NCBI GenBank assembly: GCA_944391435.1
Contig: CALXTP010000004.1
Location: forward strand, 2,303 to 66,302
From: an uncultured Alphaproteobacteria bacterium
Lineage (GTDB): Bacteria; Pseudomonadota; Alphaproteobacteria; RF32; CAG-239
Direction: 5' to 3'
Length of the DNA: 64,000 nucleotides
Below are positions 2,910-59,050 of this stretch, piece by piece (the first letter of the stretch is position 1; every line of letters starts with the position of its first letter). Both the position numbers and the translations under genes were made by a program. Below the pieces are notes generated by a model that was not told where the DNA came from, did not search any database, and was given only the letters and a program-made list of their open reading frames with translations.

Positions 2910-3566
2910 TTATTTTACACAAGTGTCTGCCCCTCTTATATACAGCGGTTTCGGAAAATCAAGATTTTTCTGCAGATATTTTTGATAAGTTGTGCGAAAC
3001 AAAGCATCTAAAGACATCATTTCGGCCAATTCAACCTGTTTTATCTGCAGTCCCAGCGACACGGAAAGCAGCCTTTCCACGCCGTCGCCGGCAAAACTGA
3101 CCTGATGCCCTTTCAGGCGTTTGGCGATTTCTTCACGCGTCAACGCTTCCGGCTGCCCGATTTTGCACAAGCGGGAATCAAACAGCTGAAAATAAAAATC
3201 TTCCCGTTTGGTTTCAATCACGACGGCATTATAAAAAGCTCGGTCTTTTTCATCCAGCATATTGGCATACACTTCAAACGCCGGCACACCCGTAAGCTGT
3301 AACTCCGGACTTCCGAGCGCCAATCCGCGTGCAAACGCCAGCCCGGCACGCACGCCGGTAAAAGACCCCGGCCCCGTGCACACGCCGAGCAAACTTATAT
3401 CCTTAAATTCCAAACGGTTGCTGTCTAACAAATTTTTAACACCGACCGCCAAATCTTCTGCCTGCCCGAATTCCTCGGCCTTTTCTTTCTTGCCGATGCA
3501 GGTCGTATCTTTGTAGAGACCGGCGACAATGCCGTTTCCAGTCGTATCAAAAACCAATGTATACAT
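2910..3566 (-). CDS. tsaB: tRNA threonylcarbamoyladenosine biosynthesis protein TsaB (YeaZ)
   Basis: MYTLVFDTT...GVCTGPGSFTGVRAGLAFARGLALG is typical of the inactive Kae1/YgjD-like TsaB. The start is taken at the internal Met at 3566. Confidence 0.75.
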   Translation of the reverse strand: MYTLVFDTTGNGIVAGLYKDTTCIGKKEKAEEFGQAEDLAVGVKNLLDSNRLEFKDISLLGVCTGPGSFTGVRAGLAFARGLALGSPELQLTGVPAFEVYANMLDEKDRAFYNAVVIETKREDFYFQLFDSRLCKIGQPEALTREEIAKRLKGHQVSFAGDGVERLLSVSLGLQIKQVELAEMMSLDALFRTTYQKYLQKNLDFPKPLYIRGADTCVK

Positions 3567-3708
3567 ATTGTTCACTCTTTCAATTTTTAGTTTGCCATCA
3601 GGCGGCAAATGTCTTAAAAAGATCTATATACCAAAACAAAAAAACAAACAACCATTTTTTTGGCGTAACATATTTTTACGCTTAACCGGCTGAATAGAAA
3701 GCGACAAA

Positions 3709-5331
3709 ATGAGCATAGAAACCATTACCATTTTTCTTTATGTCTGGCTGACCATAAGTTTATGTTTTCCCCTGCTGGCCGTTGTTTTGTTTCGTCGCAC
3801 CCGCAGGATAAAAAGCGAGCTCACCAAACGGGATTTAGCCAACAGTTATTATGAAGAAATGCTCTATGCGGCCAAAGACGGCTACCTGACCGGTTCCGTA
3901 TACAAAGACAAAGAATACCAATATTGTTCGCGCCGCCTGGCCACGCTGCTTAATCTGAAAAACGGGGAAAAGAGCACCGCTGCGGAGGTTTTTTCCGTAT
4001 TTGCACGCGCCGATGCCGAAAAGCTAAACGGCATGTACCTCGCATTGCAAAAAAGCGGCATAAGTTTTGAAACAATCGCCCGCAGCCAAAACAAAAAAAT
4101 CTTTGTCGTATCCGGCTGCCGCATCAGTTCTGCCGATTCCAAAATAGAAAGCAATTGCCTGTGGTTTCGTGACATCACGCACGAAACGGAATTTATTGAC
4201 CGCGCCACCGAAGAGGCGATATCTTGCCGCAAAGAAATGGAAGACTACCGGATTTTGATAGACAACCTGCCCTGTCCGGTATGGTTGCGCGATGACAAGC
4301 TGAACCTCCGGATTTTAAACCGACGGTACCTGGAATTGCTGGGATTGAAAAGTTTCAAAGACATCACGCCCGAAAACTCGGTTCTGCGCGACCTGGGTAA
4401 TACCACAAATCTGCTGGAAATGGCAAAAAATGCCCGTGAATCAAACACGCCGCAGAAAAAGAACATCAACATCCTGCATAACGGCGAACTCAAAAAATAT
4501 GAAATAACCGAAACGCCTTATTACGATTCGTCCCTGAAAACCTCCCACATTATCGGCTCGCTGATAGACATCACAAACTTTGACGAAGCCAAGCGCAGCT
4601 ATCAGGTCCACCTGGAAACGCACCTGGACATATTAAGCTCGCTGGATACGGCCTTTTGCATCGTCAACACCAGGCACGAGTTTACGTTCGGCAATGCCGC
4701 CTTTCTGAAATTATGGGGGCTGCCGCCGGATTTTCTGAACAACTCTCCCCATTACAACCTGTTTTTAGATAAGATTCGCGAACAGCGTACATTACCCGAA
4801 GTTTCGGATTTTAAAGCCTACAAAGAAGAAGAAAACAAGGCTTTTGACGCTTTAACGGAACAGCGGGAAGATTTGCTTTACATTCCTGACGGCCGCACAT
4901 TCCGGCGCATACGCGCCCCACACCCGGACGGGACGATTATTGCTTACGAAGACATATCCGACCGCCTGGCAGATGCCCGCCGCCTCAGCGATTTAATGTC
5001 CGTACAGCGCGGCATTTTGGACAATATCAGCGATTCGATTGTCATCTTCGCTCCGAATTTGAAGCTGAAAATCTACAATCCTGCTTTTATTAAGTTATGG
5101 GGCATAAATGCCATCGCCCTGGATGCGCTGCCGTCTCTGCGGGAGCTGCTGGATATGCAAAAGCCAAAGCTCCCCGAACTGGACGACTGGGAGACATTTC
5201 GCGAAGATATGCTAAAGCACATAACTGCCTGTACCCAATTTACGCTCAAATTGAAAAACAAACAAAAAATATTGGTAACGCCGGTCATCTTGGCAGACAC
5301 GTCTTTAATGATTACATATCGCCGGGAATAA
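3709..5331 (+). CDS. Membrane-anchored PAS-domain protein. No histidine-kinase H-box or ATPase motifs were seen.
   Basis: N-terminal TM helix, then repeated PAS-like segments (PCPVWLRDDKLNLRILNRRYLELLGL; AFCIVNTRHEFTFGNAAFLKLWG; IVIFAPNLKLKIYNPAFIKLWG). Confidence 0.5.
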   Translation: MSIETITIFLYVWLTISLCFPLLAVVLFRRTRRIKSELTKRDLANSYYEEMLYAAKDGYLTGSVYKDKEYQYCSRRLATLLNLKNGEKSTAAEVFSVFARADAEKLNGMYLALQKSGISFETIARSQNKKIFVVSGCRISSADSKIESNCLWFRDITHETEFIDRATEEAISCRKEMEDYRILIDNLPCPVWLRDDKLNLRILNRRYLELLGLKSFKDITPENSVLRDLGNTTNLLEMAKNARESNTPQKKNINILHNGELKKYEITETPYYDSSLKTSHIIGSLIDITNFDEAKRSYQVHLETHLDILSSLDTAFCIVNTRHEFTFGNAAFLKLWGLPPDFLNNSPHYNLFLDKIREQRTLPEVSDFKAYKEEENKAFDALTEQREDLLYIPDGRTFRRIRAPHPDGTIIAYEDISDRLADARRLSDLMSVQRGILDNISDSIVIFAPNLKLKIYNPAFIKLWGINAIALDALPSLRELLDMQKPKLPELDDWETFREDMLKHITACTQFTLKLKNKQKILVTPVILADTSLMITYRRE

Positions 5332-35932: not shown

Positions 35933-36298
35933 ATAAACCGTATTTCGCCGTTTTCAACCCCGGCATTTTTACTTTTTACCGCAAAAAAAGATTGACAACC
36001 CCCACGGATATATCTAACTTAAAACCAAGCCGATACATTATCAGCCAGTGCCTTGAGAAAGGTGCGGGGCTGTCGTAAGCTCTTATATGTCGCGGTGTTG
36101 GATAGCATCGTTAGTTGCTGCTTAAAAAGCAACATATATCCCCGACTGAGAAGGTCGGGGAGCTTTCGGCGCATGTCCAAAGGTGCCTTTATCTCTGAAA
36201 TAGCACCCGAAAGGTTGAAAGAATCATCTCGACATATATGATTTACGAACTTCTCGACCGCCTTTTCCATAGGTGGTTTTTCTTTATGGGGAAGTGCT

Positions 36299-37861
36299 TT
36301 GATGACCGGTTCTTTTTTATCTTTCTTCACAACCGCCACCCGCAAGCTGGATATTCTCCAACAAAAACAAAATCTAATTTTTATATGCAGTTGCACACTT
36401 TTCGCGCTCATAACAATAACGCGCATATTCACCGCTAATTATTTCTTTTTTGATACGGCCGAACATATACATGCCTCATGGCTGGTCAGCATCGGGAAAA
36501 TCCCCTATCGGGATTTTTTTGAACATCATAATCCGTTGCTGTGGTTTTGCCTTGCCCCGCTCACGCAACTGTTTGAAAGAAAGATTTGCCTGATTTTCAT
36601 TGTTCGTTTTGTTGCCGTTATAAGTTGGGCAGCCTGCCTTGCCGTTATATACAAGATAAGCCGAAAATTTTTGTATGACAAACCAAAAGCGCAACTATCC
36701 GTATTGATTTTATTGTCAATCCCCTCCATTTGGGCTGATGCCATAAATATCCGCCCAGACACCTTTATGCTGCTAAGTTTTTTAATGGCCGTATATTTCC
36801 TGTATAATTATCTGGACGGTGCCGGCAGGGCTTCATTGGCTATTTCATATATCTGCTTATCCCTGTCTTTCCTGTTTTTACAAAAAATGCTGTTTCTTGG
36901 CATGGGATTCGCAATAGCCAACCTGTTATTATGGCAACAAAAAAAGATTAAAACGGCCGATATTTGCCTCGCCGCCCTGTATGCGCTTATCCCTCTGATA
37001 ATTTTTCTTTTTTACCTGATAGACAATGATTGTCTGCACACCTGGTTTTACTACAATTTTCCGTTCAACACCCAGCTGAAAAGTTTTTACAAATCCTATA
37101 CATCTGGCCTTTCCGCCCGGCTGGGCACTTTTACAGCCTTATCGCTGCTCGTTTTGGCCAGGTGGTTCCGTCCGACTTGGCAAACGCTTATTATCTGTTG
37201 TTGCGGAATAAGCGCTTTGATGATGGTTAAATTTTTTGCCCCGCACCCCTGGTATTACGTCCCCTATTGGGTATTCGCATCAATCCTTTTAGCCGGCATT
37301 ATCGGCAAAAGCAAATATTTTAGTTTATGGTTTGCCATAATCCTGTATTGCTTCCTGAACACATCAGCAGCACTTCTTCCCAAACAGCACAATATTCTTT
37401 TCGCCCAGACATTGCAAAACATAAAAGATATTATGGAGCATTCTTCAAAACAAGACACCGTGCTCAATCTAAAAAAGGAAACCATCCACCTGTTTAACCA
37501 CGACGCCTTTTATCATTGGTTCGGTTTTCATAATGTTGCTATTTGCGATGCCATCTACAACCGGAAACAGTATTTTGATATAAACACCGCCATAAAAAGC
37601 GCCAAACCGGATATTATCATTTTCGACGGCAATTCATTTTTCCCGGTTGCCCACGATGTTGTTATGACGCAGCGTGAAAACTATCGCATTGCCAGAAACC
37701 AGCATATTATCCAAAAAGCAAGAACGTTCCCGGCAATACTGTCCAAAATAAGCTATCCGCAAGATGACTTCTGGAAAGTTGATAAAAAATGGATAAAACA
37801 GCATTATCAAAAAATAGAAAACACCGATATCTGGAAAAAGCGCCCCGTTCCCGGAACATAA
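36299..37861 (+). CDS. Polytopic membrane protein, putative GT-C-fold glycosyltransferase (paralog 1 of 3)
   Basis: About 11 TM helices and a C-terminal soluble domain. The first extracytoplasmic loop carries the conserved EHIHASWLV..PYRDFFEHHNPL shared with the paralogs at 45489 and 46993. Confidence 0.5.
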   Translation: MMTGSFLSFFTTATRKLDILQQKQNLIFICSCTLFALITITRIFTANYFFFDTAEHIHASWLVSIGKIPYRDFFEHHNPLLWFCLAPLTQLFERKICLIFIVRFVAVISWAACLAVIYKISRKFLYDKPKAQLSVLILLSIPSIWADAINIRPDTFMLLSFLMAVYFLYNYLDGAGRASLAISYICLSLSFLFLQKMLFLGMGFAIANLLLWQQKKIKTADICLAALYALIPLIIFLFYLIDNDCLHTWFYYNFPFNTQLKSFYKSYTSGLSARLGTFTALSLLVLARWFRPTWQTLIICCCGISALMMVKFFAPHPWYYVPYWVFASILLAGIIGKSKYFSLWFAIILYCFLNTSAALLPKQHNILFAQTLQNIKDIMEHSSKQDTVLNLKKETIHLFNHDAFYHWFGFHNVAICDAIYNRKQYFDINTAIKSAKPDIIIFDGNSFFPVAHDVVMTQRENYRIARNQHIIQKARTFPAILSKISYPQDDFWKVDKKWIKQHYQKIENTDIWKKRPVPGT

Positions 37862-37864
37862 AAA

Positions 37865-37941
37865 TGGTGTCAGCGGCGGGACTCGAACCCACTACCCACA
37901 GTTTAGGAAACTGTTGCTCTATCCTGATGAGCTACGCCGAC
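37865..37941 (-). tRNA. tRNA-Arg (anticodon CCU)
   Basis: Hand-folded 77-nt cloverleaf on the minus strand: 7-bp acceptor stem, D-arm GCTC/GAGC, anticodon loop TTCCTAA, T-arm GTGGG-TTCGAGT-CCCGC, discriminator A, encoded CCA. Confidence 0.85.
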
Positions 37942-38051
37942 AACCCAGATACTGGCTTACCGTCAAAAATAATAAAAAGCAAGCAAAATTTTAACACTCC
38001 CGCGATTTTAGCACTTAATTCCCGGTACAAAACGGACATATCCTCCACCGT

Positions 38052-40737: not shown

Positions 40738-43086
40738 TCATTGTACCGCCGCTGCCGGAGCCGGAGCAACATTCGCTGCCGGTGCTGCCTCTGCCGGAAC
40801 CGGAGCCGGTGCAACATTAGCCGCCGGGGCTACCTCTGCCGGAACAGGAACCGGCGCAGCATTCGCTGCCGGTGCTGCCTCTGCCGGAACAGGAGCCGGC
40901 GCAACATTCGCTGCCGGTGCTGCCGCTGCAGGAACAGGAACCGGTGCAACATTCGCTGCCGGAGCCGCCTCTGCCGGAACCGGAGCCGGCGCAGCAACAT
41001 GTGCCAAAGGAACATTCCTCACTTCATTGTTAAAAGAACGCATCTCCCCGTTATCATCCATTTCCAAAATCAAATCATCTGTCGGAGCATAAACACGGTT
41101 AGATTCAGCCGGCTGCGAAGCTGAAGCTTTCCTCCCTGAATTTACATTTCTCTCTGCGCCAAAAACTTCTTTATTCTTTTGCTTCGCCTGCAATTTTTTC
41201 TGGTACGTCTGGCTTTTTTGCTTATAAACCTCATACCAATCCCGATAATTGGCGGCAATGTTAGATATTTTGCTGCCACGTAAAACCGAATTGTTAATCA
41301 AATTCTGTTTCAAGCTGACGGCTTCATCAGGCTGCATTTTCATATTATCAATCGTATAGCAATAATCCTGATAACGGATAAGTGTTTTTGTAAAATCGCT
41401 CGCCAGGCAGATATTGGCATTAATCAAAAATTTCGGCCGTTTACCTTTGCGTATGGCCAGGCTGACCAATTGATCCTTCACAAAGTTTGCATATCTGCCG
41501 CCGGTCATTCCCGCCAATTCGCGAATATTGCTCACGCCTTGTACAATAACATCGGTTTTACGGCTCTTGGGGCTGGCCTGCATCTCATCCATATATTCCT
41601 GCAGTTTGCCGATAACACACTTGGCCTGGTCGGCATATGCCTTTCGTTTTTCGTCAATACCGCCTCTGGTCAATGAATTATCTTTCATCGCCACCCATTC
41701 TTTCCGCGGTTTCAAATTGCAAAACTCATCATATATATAAATATCGGAAGGCAAATCCACATAAACCATATAAACTTGTCCCCATGGATCCCTGATATAA
41801 TCTTCCGTCACTTCATCAATCAGGCTGACAGCCCCTTCCTGTGAAACCCGGCGATTCTCAGCCGTAACTTTATACCCTCTGATAGCAGACATCCCCGCCA
41901 GCAAATCTGCCACCGACTTCAATTCCTTGCTTTTAATGCTCAGCACCCATTCGGCCAGCAGGGCATAAACATTTTGTTCCAAAGTCCGGTTAGAATCATA
42001 CAACGGCACCGTTTTATAACTTTTAACCACACATCTGTCCGTATTCAGATTGTTGCCCGTAACACAAAAATTAAACCCTGGCATGGCATAAGTGCTGAGC
42101 CCATAGCCGTTTTCCCGCAAATAATCATACAAACGGTTTTCCTCCAGGCTGAAATAATCCAGTCCGCCGTGAATAAACTCCCATTTATTGATAAACTCCG
42201 AATATGCCCGATTCCCGCTGGTTGTACTGGTATAGTCAACTTGATTAAAGATATCAATAATATTGCTTACCGTATCATTTTTCTTAACAAAAGCATTCGG
42301 ATAAACTTCAAAACCGTTAATGGCAAAAAAGCCAATCATCAAATCGCGCAACTCGCGCAAATTATGGTCTTTCATACTGCTCAAAAACTGATAAGACGGA
42401 AAACGCGGCAGCATAAAATAAACCATATTTCCTTCCCGGTCTTTGCCTGCCTGTGAAGCAAGTGCTTTAACTTCCGTATATTCCCCTTTGGGCTGTTGGA
42501 TAAACTCGTTATTTTTAATACCCAATACGCCGGCAAACATCAAAACCATCGTAACAAAAAGCATGGCAAATGTTGAGCGAAAAGCAAAAAAGATAATAAC
42601 GCCCAACAACAAGCCGACCAGCCATGTACTGGGAACAATGCCGATAAAAGTCAGCCAGCTGGCTTTTTTTTCCAGCCACTTTTCAATAAACGTATCCGCA
42701 TCAAACAACGCAAACTGGTAAAAGAATACGATTGTCACCAAAAGTGTTACCACCGCGCACACGACATTTTGTACATCTTTTGAAAAAGATAAAATCAGCA
42801 TAAGCAAAAAGGCAACAACAAAAACCCCGCCGCAAATAACCAACACTGCTTCATTAACTTTGCCGTTTTCAATCAATTTGCCGTTGATGGAATAAATAAA
42901 CATCACAAAATCTATTGTAAACAGCAAAAAGATATAAAAAGCTCGCAAAAACTTATCATAAAAGTGGTTGGCATTTCCCGTCCAGCTGGCAAATCTGCTT
43001 GAACGGCTTTTTTTTCTTAAAACCAAAGGCTGATTAACTCCCTCGTTCATAATTCCCTCTGTCAAAATTGGACTTTTGTTTACCAT
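40738..43086 (-). CDS. Large membrane protein: 5-6 N-terminal TM helices, roughly 450-aa extracytoplasmic domain, C-terminal Pro/Ala-rich 15-aa tandem repeats
   Basis: 782-aa ORF. The C-terminus carries the repeat APAPVPAEAAPAANV about 5.5 times. The globular domain was not recognised. Confidence 0.55.
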   Translation of the reverse strand: MVNKSPILTEGIMNEGVNQPLVLRKKSRSSRFASWTGNANHFYDKFLRAFYIFLLFTIDFVMFIYSINGKLIENGKVNEAVLVICGGVFVVAFLLMLILSFSKDVQNVVCAVVTLLVTIVFFYQFALFDADTFIEKWLEKKASWLTFIGIVPSTWLVGLLLGVIIFFAFRSTFAMLFVTMVLMFAGVLGIKNNEFIQQPKGEYTEVKALASQAGKDREGNMVYFMLPRFPSYQFLSSMKDHNLRELRDLMIGFFAINGFEVYPNAFVKKNDTVSNIIDIFNQVDYTSTTSGNRAYSEFINKWEFIHGGLDYFSLEENRLYDYLRENGYGLSTYAMPGFNFCVTGNNLNTDRCVVKSYKTVPLYDSNRTLEQNVYALLAEWVLSIKSKELKSVADLLAGMSAIRGYKVTAENRRVSQEGAVSLIDEVTEDYIRDPWGQVYMVYVDLPSDIYIYDEFCNLKPRKEWVAMKDNSLTRGGIDEKRKAYADQAKCVIGKLQEYMDEMQASPKSRKTDVIVQGVSNIRELAGMTGGRYANFVKDQLVSLAIRKGKRPKFLINANICLASDFTKTLIRYQDYCYTIDNMKMQPDEAVSLKQNLINNSVLRGSKISNIAANYRDWYEVYKQKSQTYQKKLQAKQKNKEVFGAERNVNSGRKASASQPAESNRVYAPTDDLILEMDDNGEMRSFNNEVRNVPLAHVAAPAPVPAEAAPAANVAPVPVPAAAAPAANVAPAPVPAEAAPAANAAPVPVPAEVAPAANVAPAPVPAEAAPAANVAPAPAAAVQ
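40741..40995. repeat. 45-bp tandem repeat array, about 5.5 units, coding
   Basis: Units gcaacattcgctgccggtgctgcctctgccggaacaggagccggc with point variants. Near-identical to the array at 44600..44865. Confidence 0.85.
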
Positions 43087-43164
43087 ACGCCATATTTATT
43101 AAATAAAAGCTTAACCTATTTAAAAAGCCGAAAAATTTTCTAAAAAAAATAATCACTATTATTC

Positions 43165-43192
43165 TTGAATTTAAAAAAAAATCCCCTATAAT
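43165..43192 (+). promoter_or_regulatory. Near-consensus sigma70 promoter of ssrA
   Basis: TTGAAT (43165-43170), a 16-nt spacer, TATAAT (43187-43192). The predicted TSS is about 43199. Confidence 0.5.
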
Positions 43193-43199
43193 TCTTCTT

Positions 43200-43506
43200 A
43201 GTATGTGCTTCGGCACACACTTTGATACGAAAAGCCGCATGAAATAGATATATTGGACCCGGGGGCGGTACCCGGCACCTCCACCATAGACGGGGGTGAA
43301 ACAGGTTTGACAGTGTATAGTAAAGATGCGTGGGCTGTATTCGGCAAGACACCACCGTTATCGGTTCAAATCAAATAAACGCAAATGATAATTTTGCACC
43401 GGTTGCCGTAGCCGCATAAGGCAAAGCAACAAATGAAATTCTTCTGGTTATGGTTAACCGGGAGTGGGGAAGGAGCCGCCCAGCAACAGAAGGGCTCATT
43501 TTATTT
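43200..43506 (+). ncRNA. ssrA: tmRNA (ssrA), circularly permuted two-piece type as in alphaproteobacteria
   Basis: The acceptor 3' end GGCACCTCCACCA ends at 43286 after a T-arm CCGGG-GGCGGTA-CCCGG. Five nt later the 5' acceptor strand GGGGGTG (43292) pairs with CACCTCC and includes a G3:U70 pair. The tag ORF GCA AAT GAT AAT TTT GCA CCG GTT GCC GTA GCC GCA TAA (43381-43419) gives ANDNFAPVAVAA. A terminal hairpin at 43473-43497 is followed by a T-rich run. Confidence 0.75.
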
Positions 43507-43531
43507 AATATCTGCAGAAAGACATTTGGGA

Positions 43532-43996
43532 ATGACAGAATTTGTAACCGAAATAAATTATGACAAGCTGATTGAAAAGGCCTTAAAACAAGTTGTCGTT
43601 GAAGCATTAAAGATTGCGGAAGCGCAAGGGCTCCCCGGAGAAAACCATTTTTACATTACATTTAAGACAAATTTCCCCGGCACCTCCGTTCCAAGTGATT
43701 TGCAAATCCAATACCCGGAAAATATGACCATCGTTTTACAGCATCAATATGCCAATCTCCGGGTCGGAACCGATTCTTTTTCTGTTGAGCTGAGTTTTGG
43801 CGGCCGCCCGCAAACGCTCGTCATTCCTTATGACGCCATCACCTATTTTGCCGACCCGTATGCCAAATTCGGTTTGAGCTTTTCGTTTTATGAAAACGGC
43901 GACGTCCACTCGCTTGATGAAATTGAACCTGAAAAGAAAGTTGCCGGCGAAACCGCACAAATTATCTCCTTTGACAGCTTTAGAAAGAAAAAATAA
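43532..43996 (+). CDS. sspB: ClpXP adaptor SspB (stringent starvation protein B-like)
   Basis: HFYITFKTNFPGTSVP...IVLQHQYANLRVGTDSFSVELSFGGRPQTLVIPYDAITYF parallels E. coli SspB HLVVDVTLPGVQVP...IVLNIAPRAVGNLELANDEVRFNARFGGIPRQVSVPLAAV. The basic C-terminal tail ...SFDSFRKKK resembles a ClpX-binding peptide. The start is taken at Met 43532. Confidence 0.6.
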   Translation: MTEFVTEINYDKLIEKALKQVVVEALKIAEAQGLPGENHFYITFKTNFPGTSVPSDLQIQYPENMTIVLQHQYANLRVGTDSFSVELSFGGRPQTLVIPYDAITYFADPYAKFGLSFSFYENGDVHSLDEIEPEKKVAGETAQIISFDSFRKKK

Positions 43997-44229
43997 TGCA
44001 AAAATATTCCGTTGTTATTGCCGGAAAACATTACACCAGCATTTCTTTGGAAAAAGAATTTTATCAGCAGCTTAACATATTGGCATTGGAACAACGCAAG
44101 CCCGTAAACCAGTTGATTACGGAAATTGACAGTACAAAAACCGTTTCCAACTTATCGTCGGCACTACGCCTTTATATATTAAAATCCTTGCAAGACAAGC
44201 TCAACTGCTTGGAATCTTCCGTTTCATAA
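43996..44229 (+). CDS. Ribbon-helix-helix domain protein (RHH_4 family)
   Basis: GKHYTSISLEKEFYQQLNILALEQRKPVNQLITEID...NLSSALRLYIL matches the RHH_4 pattern (HxTSxxLExxFWxxL...LIxEID...NLSSAxRLFxL). Confidence 0.6.
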   Translation: MQKYSVVIAGKHYTSISLEKEFYQQLNILALEQRKPVNQLITEIDSTKTVSNLSSALRLYILKSLQDKLNCLESSVS

Positions 44230-44251
44230 GATAAGAAAAAATTATAAACAA

Positions 44252-45397
44252 TTAAAGGCCGCCATCTTCATCCGCTGCTTCCGGCAAAACGGGATTTTCC
44301 GTTATACTCTCCAAAGACTTTTCTGCTGCATTTTCCGATAAAGTTTCGCTTTGGATATCTTTATGCTCCCCTTCATTCTTCACCGCATCGCCTGTTGCTC
44401 GCGACTCAGCTTCTTCCTCAGAAACTGCTTCAGACTGTGCCTTTAGCAAATCGGCCAATCCTCCGGCCGATACAGCACCATGCAATTCAATTTCTTGGGC
44501 ATGGCTTGTTTCCCGATTGGTTTCATCTGATTTTTCAACAACTGCTTCCGCATCTGCTGCACCTTCTTTAACCTCTGCCCCTGCCGGCGATTCGCCTGCT
44601 ATGGCATTCGCCGCTGGTGCCGCCCCTGCCGGAACAGGAGCCGGCGCAACATCTACCGCCGGAACAGCCTCTGCCGGAACCGGAGCCGGCGCAACATCCG
44701 CCGCCGGTGCTGTCGCTGCAGGAACTGGAGCCGGCGCAACATTCGCTGCCGGTGCCGCCTCTGCCGGAACTGGAGCCGGCGCAACATCCGCCGCCGGTGC
44801 CGCCTCTGCCGGAACTGGAGCCGGCGCAACATTCGCTGCCGGTGCTGCCTCTGCCGGAACAGCTATATCTTCAGCAGCAATACCTTCTTTAACATCCTCC
44901 CCTGTGGACGGCATTTCAGCATCTGTACTTATCGCAGGCGCCACACCTTCTTTTACTTTTTTAAATCCGCCCTTTCTCTTCTTAAAATCAATTTTACCCT
45001 GTTCTGCCTCTTTATCCCGGGATAGTTTGGCATTATAATTTTCGCTCTTCGGACGTGCAGCTTCAGCCGCCTCCTCTTCCATCTTCCGCTTGGTTTCCTT
45101 AACTTCCTGAACAATAGCATCCGGAATAAAGCCGGTATCGCCGCTTTCTACAGCCTTGGTAACCGCCTCAAATTTAAATGCCTCATATTTATTCTGATAC
45201 CAAGTCAAAATTTCTTCCGGTTTAACCCCCTGACTCATCGGATAATATGCTGCGCCTCCGGCAGCCAACGCCAAAATAAACAATATCCACAGCGGATGCC
45301 TGAGAATAAACAGCAACACAAAAATCGGAAAAGTGATAACACTCAGCACTATATAAAAAAATCTGAACAAACTACTCCGTTTTTTCGGCTCGGCCAT
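44252..45397 (-). CDS. Membrane-anchored protein with Pro/Ala-rich 15-aa tandem repeats and an acidic C-terminal tail
   Basis: Two N-terminal TM helices, a K/E-rich segment, about 6 repeats of AAPAANVAPAPVPAE, then a D/E/S-rich tail. Confidence 0.55.
   Translation of the reverse strand: MAEPKKRSSLFRFFYIVLSVITFPIFVLLFILRHPLWILFILALAAGGAAYYPMSQGVKPEEILTWYQNKYEAFKFEAVTKAVESGDTGFIPDAIVQEVKETKRKMEEEAAEAARPKSENYNAKLSRDKEAEQGKIDFKKRKGGFKKVKEGVAPAISTDAEMPSTGEDVKEGIAAEDIAVPAEAAPAANVAPAPVPAEAAPAADVAPAPVPAEAAPAANVAPAPVPAATAPAADVAPAPVPAEAVPAVDVAPAPVPAGAAPAANAIAGESPAGAEVKEGAADAEAVVEKSDETNRETSHAQEIELHGAVSAGGLADLLKAQSEAVSEEEAESRATGDAVKNEGEHKDIQSETLSENAAEKSLESITENPVLPEAADEDGGL
44600..44865. repeat. 45-bp tandem repeat array, about 6 units, coding
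   Basis: gcaacattcgctgccggtgccgcctctgccggaactggagccggc and variants. The same repeat family as 40741..40995. Confidence 0.85.
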
Positions 45398-45488: not shown

Positions 45489-47030
45489 TCAATCTTCATA
45501 AGACCACTGTCCTGTCGCCACATTCAGGACACACTTTTTCTGCTCATATTCCGGTTTCAAACGATAGATAGAACCAAACCTTGTCGGCTGATAGTATTTT
45601 TCAACAACAGCCGGATCAATATAGTGTACAACTTCCGGTTTTCGCGTTTCATCGGAAAATTTGTTAAAATAGCTCCGCCCGTAGATAAATTTAGGCCTTA
45701 AACGCAAAATAAGCCCATTCACGTCAGGTTTCGGATAAATTCCCGTTTCTTCACCGATAACATCAAGTTGCCCGATAAGCTGCCAATAATAGGCCGGATC
45801 TTTGCCAAATAAATTGTACATCATGCCATCGCCATTAAAAACATAATCACAAGGGTTGATGGAGCGTGCAATATAGTCCGGCAAATATTCCCGCCCGTTC
45901 TGAGACAAAATCAGTCCCCGTTGAAACAAAAACACATGATAAAAAGCAAAATACAATCCGGCTATAATCAGCCAAACAACCAAATGGCACTTTTCATAAA
46001 GCCTCGCCAACAGCGGAACAGCGCATAAAACCGCAAAATAAAGCAACAGCCAATAATAATACGAATATGGCGAAAAATAAAATTTCCGCTGCACAAATTC
46101 CGCGACAAACAACAAAGCAATAACCCGCCAATATCGGTTTTTGCCCCAAAGAGCCACCACCGTTCCCACAAAAGCAGCCACAGACCAGACCAACATATAT
46201 GTCGGCAGTTCAACCACCCGGCCGAGATCAAACCCCCGTTCCAAATTCAGATTAAACGTATAATTGGAATCATAATAAAGCCCGACCATATCATAATGCA
46301 CCAAATACAAAATAAAAACGGCCACCATGAGTAACGGCAGAATCATGGCTCTGGCCATATCTGCCGTCTTAATGTATTTTTTGTACCAAAAATAAAGCCC
46401 CGTAATCCCCAAGACAGCCAGCGGAAACAACGCCTTTTGTGCAAAAAAGAACGATAATGCAAACCAAACGAACGCCACCGCCAGATGCCGAAAATTTTGC
46501 TGTTTGAGATACAAAAAATAATAATAAAGCCCTCCCGTCAGGCAAAAAACCATATAATTATCCGGCCGAAAATCCACGGCATACAGCTTATAACTCGGCG
46601 TTGCAATAGCGGCCGCGGCCACTACGCCCCACAGTTTATTGCTCAAAAATTCGGCATTTATGCGATATACATACACCAGCGACTTCAAAAAAACCAAAAA
46701 GGAAATCAGGCACACAACTTCCGTTATCGTTGCATTATAAGCAAATAAAGCCGTTAATGGCGCAAACAGATACCACATCAGCGGATTATGGTGCTGGAAA
46801 AAATCCCGATAAGGCACCAGCCCCTGCATAATCAAAAAGCTGGAATGGATATGCTCTATATTATCCCCGTTTTGCGTCGGCACATGCGCCGTCATCATCA
46901 CATACATAATAGATACGGATACCAGATAAACCCCCAACGCCCCGAAAGCACCGAATTTATCTATAAGTGCATAAAAAGACCGGCCCATTTGTTTAATTCT
47001 TTCCATATTGCCAAACTCCCGTCTTTTCAT
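45489..47030 (-). CDS. Polytopic membrane protein, putative GT-C-fold glycosyltransferase (paralog 2 of 3)
   Basis: EHIHSSFLIMQGLVPYRDFFQHHNPLMWY motif and about 11 TM helices. The start is uncertain (47030, 47006 or 46988). Confidence 0.5.
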   Translation of the reverse strand: MKRREFGNMERIKQMGRSFYALIDKFGAFGALGVYLVSVSIMYVMMTAHVPTQNGDNIEHIHSSFLIMQGLVPYRDFFQHHNPLMWYLFAPLTALFAYNATITEVVCLISFLVFLKSLVYVYRINAEFLSNKLWGVVAAAAIATPSYKLYAVDFRPDNYMVFCLTGGLYYYFLYLKQQNFRHLAVAFVWFALSFFFAQKALFPLAVLGITGLYFWYKKYIKTADMARAMILPLLMVAVFILYLVHYDMVGLYYDSNYTFNLNLERGFDLGRVVELPTYMLVWSVAAFVGTVVALWGKNRYWRVIALLFVAEFVQRKFYFSPYSYYYWLLLYFAVLCAVPLLARLYEKCHLVVWLIIAGLYFAFYHVFLFQRGLILSQNGREYLPDYIARSINPCDYVFNGDGMMYNLFGKDPAYYWQLIGQLDVIGEETGIYPKPDVNGLILRLRPKFIYGRSYFNKFSDETRKPEVVHYIDPAVVEKYYQPTRFGSIYRLKPEYEQKKCVLNVATGQWSYED

Positions 47031-48564
47031 CTTTTACACAATCGCGTCGGATATATTCTTTTTTCAGGCGATATAATCCGCGCGGATATTCAAAATAAAC
47101 CTCTTTCTGAAGTTCAAAATTCCATTTTCCGTCGTTGACGATTTCCGTCGGCTCATATAATTTATCCAGCACCTCCTTATTAAAGGTATAAATTGTTTGC
47201 TCTTCATCAAAAAAACTCTTTATATCATCAACCCAGATAAACTTAGGGCGATATTTTTGGATAAGCGCACCATAATCATCATAATCATGCAGCCCGATTT
47301 TTGCACCGACAATCGACAGACGCCCCGGAATAAACCAATAATATTCCGGAGTTTTGCTAAACAAAAACAAAATTCCACCATTGCCTGTTAAAACATAATC
47401 GCACCGGTTTGTTTGTTCCCACAAATACTCCAAAACCGTCTTGTGATATTTATAAACAATATCATTATAAAAGCACATACCCATATAAATAAGATAACAC
47501 TGTATCTCCACAAACACGATAAGCAGCAGGATTTTCCATTTTTCTGCCAATTTCATGACACCGGCAGCAGCTAACGGAACGGCAAAGAAATACGCTTCGT
47601 AATAGTAATAAACATGTGGGGAAAAATAAAAGACCTTGCTGGCATAAATAAGTACAAACAGCCACACCCAGCAACGAAAATACCGCCCCATATATTTATA
47701 CAGGGCAATTCCCGAAAATATCGCCGCGCCAAACATAATATTGGCAATATCCCAAGCTCTGTTTATACGCCTGTCGCCAAATAGATCCACCATCTCCCGG
47801 TTAAAAGCAAAATTCATTTGATAGTAAACATCCCATAAACCGGCAGACCATAAATACAAAGCAAGGCACGCCGCACTGGCCAGCGGAAAAATAATGGCTG
47901 AGCCAAAATCGCGCCATTTCATTTCCCGCGTATAAAGAAGCCAGCCAGACCAAACCGCAACCAATGGAAAATAAAACAACGCCTTTTGGCAAAACAAAAA
48001 AGCAACCCAGAAAGCGGCATACGAAAAAATCAAATCGCGGCGTTTCTTATCGCGCATATAGCAAAACAGATAATATATGCCCGCCATAACGCAGGTAAAC
48101 ATATAATTATCCGGCTTGAAATAAACATAATACAAAAATATTCCGGGCGCCAGCAGCATCAACACGGATAACAAAGCCGCCGTCCGCCCGCTTAAAAACT
48201 CCGTAATAACTTTATATAAAAAAACAAGCCCTATAACAAAAAACAAAAAAGTGATATAATTAACGACTCCGAATACATGAATATTTCTCTCAAGTAAACC
48301 TACAACCGGAGCAAACAAATACCATAACAGAGGATGATGATGTTCAAAAAAATCACGATACGGCACAGCCCCCTGATGGACTAAAAAACTGGCCTGGATA
48401 TGTTCGGCAATATCGCCTTCCGCCCACTCAAAATACACTGTAGCAAGGCTGACAAGCCCCAATATCACCAATAAATTAACAAACAGGGTAGCATCAATCC
48501 ATATCGGAAAGCGCCGCCACACCGTCTGCCAAATATTTTCCAGTCCGTGTTTCACGTACCCCAC
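46993..48564 (-). CDS. Polytopic membrane protein, putative GT-C-fold glycosyltransferase (paralog 3 of 3)
   Basis: EHIQASFLVHQGAVPYRDFFEHHHPLLWY motif. GTG start 7 nt after the malQ stop. Confidence 0.5.
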   Translation of the reverse strand: MGYVKHGLENIWQTVWRRFPIWIDATLFVNLLVILGLVSLATVYFEWAEGDIAEHIQASFLVHQGAVPYRDFFEHHHPLLWYLFAPVVGLLERNIHVFGVVNYITFLFFVIGLVFLYKVITEFLSGRTAALLSVLMLLAPGIFLYYVYFKPDNYMFTCVMAGIYYLFCYMRDKKRRDLIFSYAAFWVAFLFCQKALFYFPLVAVWSGWLLYTREMKWRDFGSAIIFPLASAACLALYLWSAGLWDVYYQMNFAFNREMVDLFGDRRINRAWDIANIMFGAAIFSGIALYKYMGRYFRCWVWLFVLIYASKVFYFSPHVYYYYEAYFFAVPLAAAGVMKLAEKWKILLLIVFVEIQCYLIYMGMCFYNDIVYKYHKTVLEYLWEQTNRCDYVLTGNGGILFLFSKTPEYYWFIPGRLSIVGAKIGLHDYDDYGALIQKYRPKFIWVDDIKSFFDEEQTIYTFNKEVLDKLYEPTEIVNDGKWNFELQKEVYFEYPRGLYRLKKEYIRRDCVKDEKTGVWQYGKN

Positions 48565-57629: not shown

Positions 57630-58067
57630 ATGTCTGCTTGGATTATTTTTCTCATCATTGCGTTAATATGTTTCATCGCTGAAATATATGCACCGACAAT
57701 GTTTTTTATGAATTTTGCCCTTGCCGGGGTTGTTTGTGCCCTGTTGGGTCTGCTGACGGATAATTATAACATTTTGATACCGATTTTTACCATCTTATCC
57801 ATCATCTTCATTCTGTTCTTGCGCCCGTTGCTTAACATTAATCCCAAACGCGACAAAGAACATAGTTTTGAATCCCAATATATCGGCAAAATCGCCACAG
57901 CCACCACGGATATCAATGCTTTTTCTGGACGTCTTAGCATCTATGACGAACAGTGGGAAGCACGCACAACTGATGAAAACGCGGCAGAAATCAAAAAAGG
58001 AACCAAAGTAAAAATCATTCGCCACGATGATTTGACCATGTATGTTGAAAAGAAAGGAAAGAAATAA
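57630..58067 (+). CDS. NfeD-family membrane protein (short form), partner of the SPFH protein
   Basis: Three TM helices plus a C-terminal OB-fold-like domain. It lies directly upstream of the SPFH gene, with ATGA-style coupling. Confidence 0.6.
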   Translation: MSAWIIFLIIALICFIAEIYAPTMFFMNFALAGVVCALLGLLTDNYNILIPIFTILSIIFILFLRPLLNINPKRDKEHSFESQYIGKIATATTDINAFSGRLSIYDEQWEARTTDENAAEIKKGTKVKIIRHDDLTMYVEKKGKK

Positions 58068-59050
58068 TGGAAGTCGTATTATCCCTTTTGCTCCTGGCCG
58101 GCATTTTATTTGCCATCAAAGGCTGCATTATCGTTGAACAGCAGGAAGTCATCATCGTCCAGCGTTTGGGCAAGTACAAAGAAACCCTGACTGCCGGTCT
58201 GAACTTCATCGTCCCTTTCATAGATTCGCCGAAAGTTTTTTATCAAAAAGTCAATACGGGCGTTGAACGTGACGGCAGAAGCTACAGTTACATTCACAAA
58301 ACCTACCGGCTGGACTTGCGTGAAACGGTATATGACTTTCCGCGCCAAAACGTTATCACCAAAGACAACGTTTCCATCGCCATCAATGCTGTCCTTTATT
58401 ACCAGATTATCAATCCGGAAAAAGCCGTTTACGGCGTTGAAAACCTGTCGGAAGCAATTGAAAAGCTGACCCAGACCACCCTGCGCCAGCTCATCGGAAA
58501 AATGGAATTGCAGGAAACCCTCGTTTCGCGTGATAAAATCAACGACGAATTGCGGAGCATTTTAGATGCAGCTTCTGACAAATGGGGCGTAAAGGTCAAC
58601 CGCATTGAATTGCAGGATATTATGCCGCCGAGCGACATTCAGGCCGCCATGGACAAGCAAATGAAAGCCGAGCGTGAAAAGCGCGCCATGATTTACGAAG
58701 CCGAAGGCCAGAAAGAATCAGCCATCCGCATTGCCGAAGGCGAAAAAGAAGCGGCCATCCGCCAGGCAGAAGGCGCAAAAGAAGCCGAAATTTTACGCGC
58801 AGAAGGCATCGCCCAGGCTCGTAAAATAGAAGCAGACGCCGAAAAGGAAGCGATTCACCGCATCATAGAAGTTCTGTCTTCCAAAGGGCAGGCTGACAAA
58901 TATCTGATTGCGATGAAATATCTTGAAACCCTGAAAGATATCACATCAGGCAAAGATAACAAAATCGTCTATATGCCCTATGAAGCCAGCGCAGTTTTAA
59001 GTTCCATTGACGGCATCAAGGAATTATTATCCGCGCATAAGAACATATAA
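58067..59050 (+). CDS. SPFH/band-7 (stomatin-like) domain protein
   Basis: N-terminal TM, then an SPFH core (IIVEQQEVIIVQRLGKY...NVSIAINAVLYY) and a coiled-coil A/E/K-rich C-terminus. Confidence 0.8.
   Translation: MEVVLSLLLLAGILFAIKGCIIVEQQEVIIVQRLGKYKETLTAGLNFIVPFIDSPKVFYQKVNTGVERDGRSYSYIHKTYRLDLRETVYDFPRQNVITKDNVSIAINAVLYYQIINPEKAVYGVENLSEAIEKLTQTTLRQLIGKMELQETLVSRDKINDELRSILDAASDKWGVKVNRIELQDIMPPSDIQAAMDKQMKAEREKRAMIYEAEGQKESAIRIAEGEKEAAIRQAEGAKEAEILRAEGIAQARKIEADAEKEAIHRIIEVLSSKGQADKYLIAMKYLETLKDITSGKDNKIVYMPYEASAVLSSIDGIKELLSAHKNI

Follow-up and report, generated by a model that had tools for sequence, protein, structure and literature searches.

The 64,000-nucleotide stretch analysed here (the window), taken from contig CALXTP010000004.1 of an uncultured alphaproteobacterium, carries tandem arrays of a 45-bp unit in two genes of its minus strand. 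We refer to these genes as A and B and to their repeats as array A and array B (Table 1). In both arrays the unit comprises 15 codons, is read in the frame of the gene, contains no insertions or deletions and is continuous with the conserved parts of the protein, encoding a 15-residue peptide of the APAPVPAEAAPAANV type. At the codon level, array A accounts for the C-terminal 84 residues of protein A and abuts the stop codon of the gene (40738-40740), while the 86 codons of array B correspond to residues 179-264 of the 381-residue protein B. They are separated by 3,610 bp that contain a two-piece transfer-messenger RNA (tmRNA), sspB and a ribbon-helix-helix (RHH) gene. An earlier interpretation made from the letters of the window (the sequence-only reading) had described two such in-frame arrays with one common unit, about 3.6 kb apart and flanking ssrA-sspB-RHH. 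The arrays are borne out by Tandem Repeats Finder and by reading of the open reading frames (ORFs), and the spacing and the intervening genes by Rfam, ARAGORN and Pfam.

Tandem Repeats Finder, which that reading had named as a check, recovered both period-45 arrays: array A at 40757-40993 (5.3 copies, 86% matches, no indels, score 362) and array B at 44605-44860 (5.7 copies, 86% matches, score 379). When the whole 64-kb window was scanned for tandem repeats, no third array of this 45-bp kind was found. A 29-nt unit probe with at most three mismatches hit eight sites, all of them within the two arrays, and none in 100 shuffles. The plus-strand ORFs that run over the arrays were rejected as stop-free artefacts of the repeat.

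To evaluate the variation of the arrays among strains, we compared eight contigs of the same species that contain both of them, i.e. the window and seven more. These are independent assemblies from different samples, and everything used for comparison was assembled from metagenomes, apparently from short reads in most cases. Array A covers 69-144 residues (4.6-9.6 units) and array B 30-86 residues (2-5.7 units), with one more protein allele of B reaching about 7.4 units, and the order and point variants of the units in both arrays change from contig to contig. The interval between the arrays, on the other hand, is exactly 3,610 bp long in eight of eight contigs, with an identity of 99.0-99.7%, and the identity in the body of gene A is 99.0-99.9%. 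This invariant interval, together with the changing unit counts, confirms the copy-number variation that the sequence-only reading had anticipated. The protein alleles tell the same: seven alleles fall into the 90% cluster of protein A, with lengths of 755, 770 (the window), 777, 787, 807, 815 and 830 residues, and differ almost solely in the tail, and the alleles of protein B, which differ only in the array, have 325 (four different sequences), 340, 355, 370, 381 and 406 residues. Therefore, both arrays are in-frame variable-number tandem repeats (VNTRs) that gain, lose and reshuffle 45-bp units far faster than their flanks change. Two of the contigs, L009 and L010, encode an identical A protein and different B arrays. 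The lengths of the two arrays do not co-vary significantly (Pearson r -0.35 over the eight contigs; Spearman rho -0.33, p 0.47, n = 7 with the duplicate L010 left out), and we thus see no sign that the tail lengths must match.

Since short-read assemblers have difficulty with repeats of such length, it might be argued that a single real array has been duplicated or cross-assembled into the second gene, and that the differences in unit count are collapse errors; assembly problems are indeed visible in L006, P0111 and L012. However, both arrays are in frame and sit between unique conserved flanks in at least eight independent assemblies from different samples, each array has its private variants, and the unit sequences, beyond their counts, vary among strains. 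These differences in unit sequence are beyond what collapse alone could produce, and we regard an artefactual second array as very improbable.

The two arrays are clearly related at the DNA level. A blastn comparison gives an ungapped alignment of 224 nt with 86.2% identity (E 2e-68), and the likeness ends exactly at the array borders; the best pair of A and B units in the window has 35 consecutive identical bases. The consensus units derived from 35 distinct A units and 20 distinct B units agree except at 3 of 45 positions, each of them a synonymous third position, and the population consensus peptides are identical (APAPVPAEAAPAANV). Given the peptide and the local codon usage, 5.7 of the consensus codons would be expected to be alike, whereas 12 of 15 are (P = 7.6e-4), the common choices including GCT at Ala3, GTT at Val5 and Val15, GCA at Ala7, and GAG over the commoner GAA. 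Judged on these sequences, the three exclusively synonymous differences show that the array DNA has a common origin, arrays A and B descending from one source.

Common origin is a different matter from continued exchange. The arrays had been called near-identical, which is overstated because the identity between A and B units amounts to 81-86% in any register, about the same as the identity within each array; the pooled p-distances are 0.144 (A-A), 0.168 (B-B) and 0.179 (A-B). If frequent gene conversion kept the arrays alike, the two arrays of one genome should track each other. Such ongoing concerted evolution is in keeping with the identical consensus peptide and the 42 of 45 nucleotides in common, with an A-B divergence barely over the within-array values, with the exact stretches of 17-38 bp common to both arrays (35 bp in the window), and with rare variants and a parallel Ala-to-Val shift in a sister species (L006) that are considered below. 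Among the eight contigs, however, A and B arrays of the same strain are no closer than those of different strains by permutation (p 0.52 for the mean distance, 0.31 for the nearest neighbour), and a search for exchanged units found that none of 36 A units is identical to any of 21 B units. Moreover, array-private variants, synonymous ones among them, persist across strains: array B has CCA at codon 4, Asp at codon 14 and a terminal GCC, while array A has GCT at codon 10. The pair L009 and L010, with the same A array and different B arrays, likewise speaks against the two arrays moving together. Ongoing homogenisation between arrays A and B, which the sequence-only reading expected as concerted evolution, is thus not supported by the strain data, and we consider it unlikely as an account of the locus.

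The geometry of the arrays also limits what recombination between them could do. Being on one strand, arrays A and B are direct repeats, so that crossing-over between them deletes the interval and never inverts it; the proposed inversion is therefore impossible. The product of such a deletion would be a fusion of roughly the first 180 residues of B with the end of A, while the remainder of B, the RHH gene, sspB, ssrA and nearly all of A would be lost. Neither this product nor any other change of the interval turned up in the protein searches or among the eight contigs, so the suggested rearrangement finds no counterpart among them. The longest exact A-B match inside one genome is 17-38 bp over the eight contigs. 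A match of this length is about the shortest on which homologous recombination can act, near the minimum pairing length of RecA, and recombination should be further suppressed by the surrounding 14% divergence.

Comparison with other species gives some indication of when the repeat came to be shared. The C-terminus of protein A is a tandem repeat rich in Pro, Ala, Val and Glu in more distant species too, with unrelated units and periods, e.g. a 16-residue AEVAPVAQPAAAVETP unit or a ~20-residue SSQTQPAASAQEVNVAPVAT unit. The repeats in orthologues of B are likewise different ones; L002, for example, has a 36-residue unit and L007 a GEPDVAVKKAVEAA unit. Gene B of the latter (3114-4126) is split by a frameshift. 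Only L006, the closest other species, in which A is 82% identical, has a related motif in both genes. There the motif is Val-rich: A ends in VETVPVVNVVSVPTEVAPVVNTVP, and B has AVPVVDVATVPVAD inside a larger repeat. As L006 alone among the other species has a related motif in both genes, the sharing of the repeat is probably older than the split of L006 from the window species. Scans with the GTTCCGGCAGAGGCNGCNCCGGCNGC pattern over collections of genome and metagenome contigs that lack this species returned single chance matches in unrelated GC-rich genomes only.

The tails of A and B also resemble each other at the protein level elsewhere. In L016 (4044-4850 and 6001-8652), A ends in GELDLF and B in LELDLF, with different codons at four of the five positions; in L002 (7512-8819 and 10001-12700), A ends in IPTLLP and B has four P.LLP motifs encoded by different codons. 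The A tails of some species end in GELELF or GELDLF, similar to the conserved C-terminal motif of B. Because the codons of the ELDLF and PTLLP motifs differ, these cases represent likeness of the proteins and not conversion tracts. One might ask whether selection of both proteins for one peptide, e.g. for binding of one partner, produced the arrays by convergence, the DNA likeness being a by-product without common descent. The short motifs common to A and B tails without DNA identity, and the conserved C-terminal motif of the B family, would fit with this. Nevertheless, convergence on a peptide does not account for position-specific codons matching at 12 of 15 positions, and the sharing of k-mers between tails of the same genome in five other species is not significant (permutation p 0.12-0.24); convergence is therefore hardly plausible as the origin of the arrays. 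A related and more speculative idea, to which we give little credence, is that the disordered tails of A and B are functionally coupled and contact the same partner. The shared array would then be the DNA footprint of a module exchange between interchangeable tails in the B / RHH-sspB-ssrA / A cluster that is conserved in gut Rhodospirillales. The basis for this idea is the recurrence of ELDLF, P.LLP and AGGL..L in both tails across species, again without DNA identity.

Protein A belongs to a conserved family of its own. The ORF of 782 codons had been taken as its length, with the array at the C-terminus; the C-terminal place holds, while the start is probably 12 codons further inside, because the 770-residue product matches the protein collection exactly, and the homologues all begin M-x-E-x-V-x-Q-P-L. 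The searches gave 101 hits for A, all from uncultured gut Alphaproteobacteria. No family was found for A in Pfam (E <= 0.01) or NCBIfam (E <= 1) except low-complexity noise, and the matches of A and B to GltJ and DnaX tau in these databases were rejected as such noise. A profile search of PDB sequences with A gave nothing but low-complexity noise from ribosomal eS8, and profile searches of PDB sequences overall gave only low-complexity matches to eS8 and huntingtin.

A confident AlphaFold2 (AF2) model of A, built with 47 homologues, has a mean predicted local distance difference test (pLDDT) score of 78, with 345 residues at or above 90. It consists of five N-terminal transmembrane (TM) helices (30-54, 67-89, 91-113, 141-156 and 160-182), a large alpha/beta domain, a helical stalk and a low-confidence tail, in which residues 641-770, including the array, have pLDDT < 50. 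In Foldseek searches against the PDB, the full-length matches are MCR-1 (9nww, E 7e-8), PbgA/YejM (6v8q, 6xlp) and EptA (5fgn), with E from 7e-8 to 6e-6, and the domain matches are LtaS (2w5q) and many sulfatases, the TM-scores being low throughout (0.22-0.50). Like PbgA/YejM(LapC), EptA/MCR-1 and LtaS, A has five TM helices followed by an extracytoplasmic domain of the alkaline phosphatase superfamily, but unlike a recognised member it has no detectable sequence similarity to PbgA, EptA or LtaS, and we know of no protein of this type with a repetitive Ala/Pro C-terminal tail. According to the model, A is an inner-membrane protein with an extracytoplasmic alkaline-phosphatase-superfamily domain, PbgA/EptA/LtaS-like by structure and not by sequence. 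Since this 5-TM PbgA/EptA-like architecture and the six Cys residues that are invariant in the large domain across the homologue alignment both fit the periplasm, we infer that the repeat tail of A hangs free in that compartment.

Protein B, for which the 91 homologues come from uncultured gut Alphaproteobacteria only, gave no Pfam or NCBIfam hit beyond low-complexity noise. Its N-terminus is a two-helix membrane hairpin (about 9-33 and 35-55), confidently modelled by AF2, and is followed by a conserved helical segment of basic and acidic residues up to an invariant KKRKGGFKK patch. The long acidic tail that follows has a net charge of -35, is predicted to be disordered and contains array B, which has pLDDT < 50 throughout the AF2 model. 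The repeat regions of both proteins are thus predicted to be disordered. In the alignment, B orthologues have an internal AGGL..L helix and a conserved C-terminal motif, D-[IV]-F-[ST]-D-E-x-F-x-x-L-x-L-F, which is degenerate in the window species (ending in EDGGL). A beta-clamp-type QL[SD]LF interpretation of the C-terminus of B was also considered; the window species has lost the motif. Because four Lys/Arg residues lie at the N-terminus, the positive-inside rule places the ends of B, including the tail, in the cytoplasm, where the tail probably resides. The predicted cytoplasmic N-termini of the two proteins just before the first TM helix are alike (residues 12-21 of A, RKKSRSSRFASW; residues 5-13 of B, KKRSSLFRFFY), which may be chance or a short common motif.

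The genes around the arrays are summarised in Table 1. The gene order is two PMT_2-like glycosyltransferase genes, B, RHH/sspB/ssrA on the opposite strand, A, and a YejB/E/F-like ABC transporter. This whole order is kept in every related locus fetched, with the PMT_2-like pair directly upstream of B. The homologues of A and B derive from metagenome-assembled genomes labelled 'Acetobacter sp.', 'Alphaproteobacteria bacterium' or Candidatus Scatocola, a genus of Rhodospirillales. The listed SspB ORF (187 residues), taken from 43433, overlaps with the tmRNA at the 3' end of the latter; the true start is likely Met34, giving 154 residues as called for the orthologues in L002, L007 and L016. ARAGORN reads the tmRNA tag as ANDNFAPVAVAA; a tie between this tag and the repeat peptide was rejected, the likeness being compositional only.

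Table 1. Features of the locus, in window coordinates
Feature	Position	Strand	Description	Evidence
Gene A	40738..43050	-	770 residues (probable start); ORF reaches 43086 (782 residues)	ORF, homologues, AF2, Foldseek, invariant Cys, hydropathy	
Array A	40741..40992	-	5 full 45-bp units and a 27-bp partial unit	Tandem Repeats Finder, unit table, AF2
ssrA	43161..43500	+	two-piece (permuted) alphaproteobacterial tmRNA	Rfam RF01849, 200 bits; RF04321, 142 bits; ARAGORN tmRNA*
sspB	43532..43996	+	likely start at 43532	Pfam PF04386, 2.6e-38
RHH_4 gene	43996..44229	+	co-oriented with sspB; position kept in every related locus	Pfam PF13467, 1.5e-16
Gene B	44252..45397	-	381 residues	ORF, homologues, alignment, hydropathy, AF2
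Array B	44603..44860	-	33-bp partial unit and 5 full 45-bp units	Tandem Repeats Finder, unit table, AF2
Two tandem overlapping paralogous multi-TM genes	45489-47030, 46993-48564	-	ArnT/GT39-like glycosyltransferases (putative)	weak PMT_2 matches

Two further observations concern other parts of the window. The segment past the ABC-transporter ATPase (about 36000-38000), beside a tRNA-Arg(CCT) gene at 37865-37941, varies among strains: it holds an integrase, a helix-turn-helix protein and a DNA methyltransferase in L011 (11360-14364), a PMT_2 glycosyltransferase in L015 (11145-12704) and apparently also in the window, and short unknown ORFs in L009 (11370-12329) and L001 (15301-15729). It looks like a tRNA-linked variable region or integration hotspot. 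A 33-bp repeat of 2.6 copies (58700-58785, plus strand) lies inside a 327-residue ORF (58067-59050) that has, by eye only, an SPFH/band-7 (stomatin-type) look; it encodes an AEGxKEAxIRx coiled-coil repeat typical of such proteins and seems ordinary.

The closest known phenomenon is the intragenic repeat of tolA. In Escherichia coli, the in-frame repeat tract of tolA varies strongly between strains, its contraction is RecA-dependent, and the repeat number modulates tolerance to detergent, osmotic stress and phage (Zhou, Michiels & Aertsen 2012, PMC3477136). As in the locus described here, this is an in-frame coding repeat with strain-variable copy number that forms an Ala-rich extended segment of an envelope protein anchored in the inner membrane. 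TolA is anchored by one TM helix and comprises a helical domain II and, behind the repeat, a globular domain III, whereas the repeat of A meets the stop codon; in addition, the unit found here is Ala/Pro-rich and predicted to be disordered instead of helical, and is present in a second, unrelated neighbouring gene as well.

The tolA precedent, which ties repeat number to infection by phage fd and to detergent tolerance (PMC3477136), raises the question of whether the arrays are an adaptive contingency locus, in which the repeat number of an exposed envelope protein is switched to escape recognition by phage, colicin or host. The very high allelic diversity next to flanks that are ~99% identical could be read in this way. 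However, A and B are anchored in the inner membrane with no sign of surface exposure, the changes are always in frame and so provide no on/off switching, and the lengths of A and B do not co-vary. Nonsynonymous codon differences between units are also about as frequent as synonymous ones, with no clear sign of diversifying selection. A contingency function is accordingly very improbable.

The sequence-only reading had also likened the repeats to the linkers of TonB and TolA. TonB has a Pro-rich extended low-complexity segment, is anchored in the inner membrane and projects into the periplasm. As a spacer analogy the comparison is reasonable for A only: the composition fits in both proteins, but A is predicted to be periplasmic at this point whereas the tail of B is predicted to be cytoplasmic by the positive-inside rule. 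Membership in the TonB/TolA family fails for both. Instead of the single N-terminal TM anchor, A has five TM helices and B a two-helix hairpin, and in place of a folded C-terminal domain, array A ends at the stop codon and the remainder of B is predicted to be disordered with no Pfam hit. TonB has one TM helix, which acts with ExbB/ExbD, and a C-terminal domain docking on outer-membrane receptors; A and B are without these. The E2 chains of 2-oxo-acid dehydrogenases are another point of reference, having Ala/Pro-rich inter-domain linkers with runs of Ala, Pro, Val and Glu that are presumed to be semi-rigid and extended. In composition and presumed extended conformation these resemble arrays A and B; they are, however, cytoplasmic and lie between folded domains, and they are not known as strain-variable VNTRs common to two genes. 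A search of the literature on proline-alanine periplasmic linker VNTRs yielded nothing relevant. Borg elements are reported to have likewise fast-evolving in-frame tandem repeats (PMC9879509) that add disordered segments, and differ in their archaeal extrachromosomal host context. The variation of the arrays is of a fairly ordinary bacterial variable-repeat kind, unusual only in being common to two unrelated genes.

Taken together, we favour, with a probability of about 0.7, the explanation that arrays A and B are in-frame VNTRs encoding disordered Ala/Pro/Val-rich spacers, which have one DNA origin and have since evolved largely independently as generic spacers with weak constraint on length. 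One or a few ancient ectopic copying events, by non-allelic gene conversion or by duplication, would have seeded one array from the other in the ancestry of the window species and its sister L006. The arrays may since have evolved mostly apart, with exchange between them being rare at most, and with turnover within each array by replication slippage or by unequal recombination of the RecA type, as in tolA. The unit presumably serves as a generic extended disordered spacer whose exact length is weakly constrained. In A it would form a free periplasmic C-terminal tail behind the PbgA/EptA/LtaS-like domain, and in B it may set the conserved membrane-proximal module apart from the acidic C-terminal part. 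If the tail of B is cytoplasmic and that of A periplasmic, one peptide is present in two compartments, which favours a generic spacer over specific binding; a compartment-specific binding role would then be unlikely.

Several points weigh against this explanation. Rare variants (AASAA, APASVP, EAVPA, PVANV, VPAP and the codon CCA) recur in both arrays in different strains, and could mean occasional exchange instead of recurrent mutation. The shift between Ala-rich units in the window species and Val-rich units in L006 is parallel in both genes and looks like concerted evolution; it hints at some past concerted change, for which the lower GC content of L006 (41% vs 44%) is an alternative cause. 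The exact copy numbers of repeat tracts of 130-430 bp may be wrong in metagenome assemblies, and gene B in particular has given trouble: there is a 100-N gap in L006 (7437-8825), the array is frameshifted in P0111, and the L012 contig starts inside B, which shows that assemblies of related species and strains are error-prone at the repeat tracts of this gene. Finally, both the spacer function and the topology of B rest on inference.

Rapid variation among strains is known to arise from in-frame VNTRs in envelope proteins, and the present locus is a clean natural example of a repeat module that was copied between unrelated neighbouring genes and then diverged. The pair of arrays allows turnover rates within arrays to be compared with those between arrays. 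Arrays A and B are also candidate high-resolution strain markers for the window species, and at the same time weak points in short-read assembly. The more useful by-product, in our estimation, is family A itself, a conserved family without annotation that has a PbgA/EptA/LtaS-like architecture and occurs in gut Rhodospirillales, alongside which stands the small, partner-like membrane protein B.

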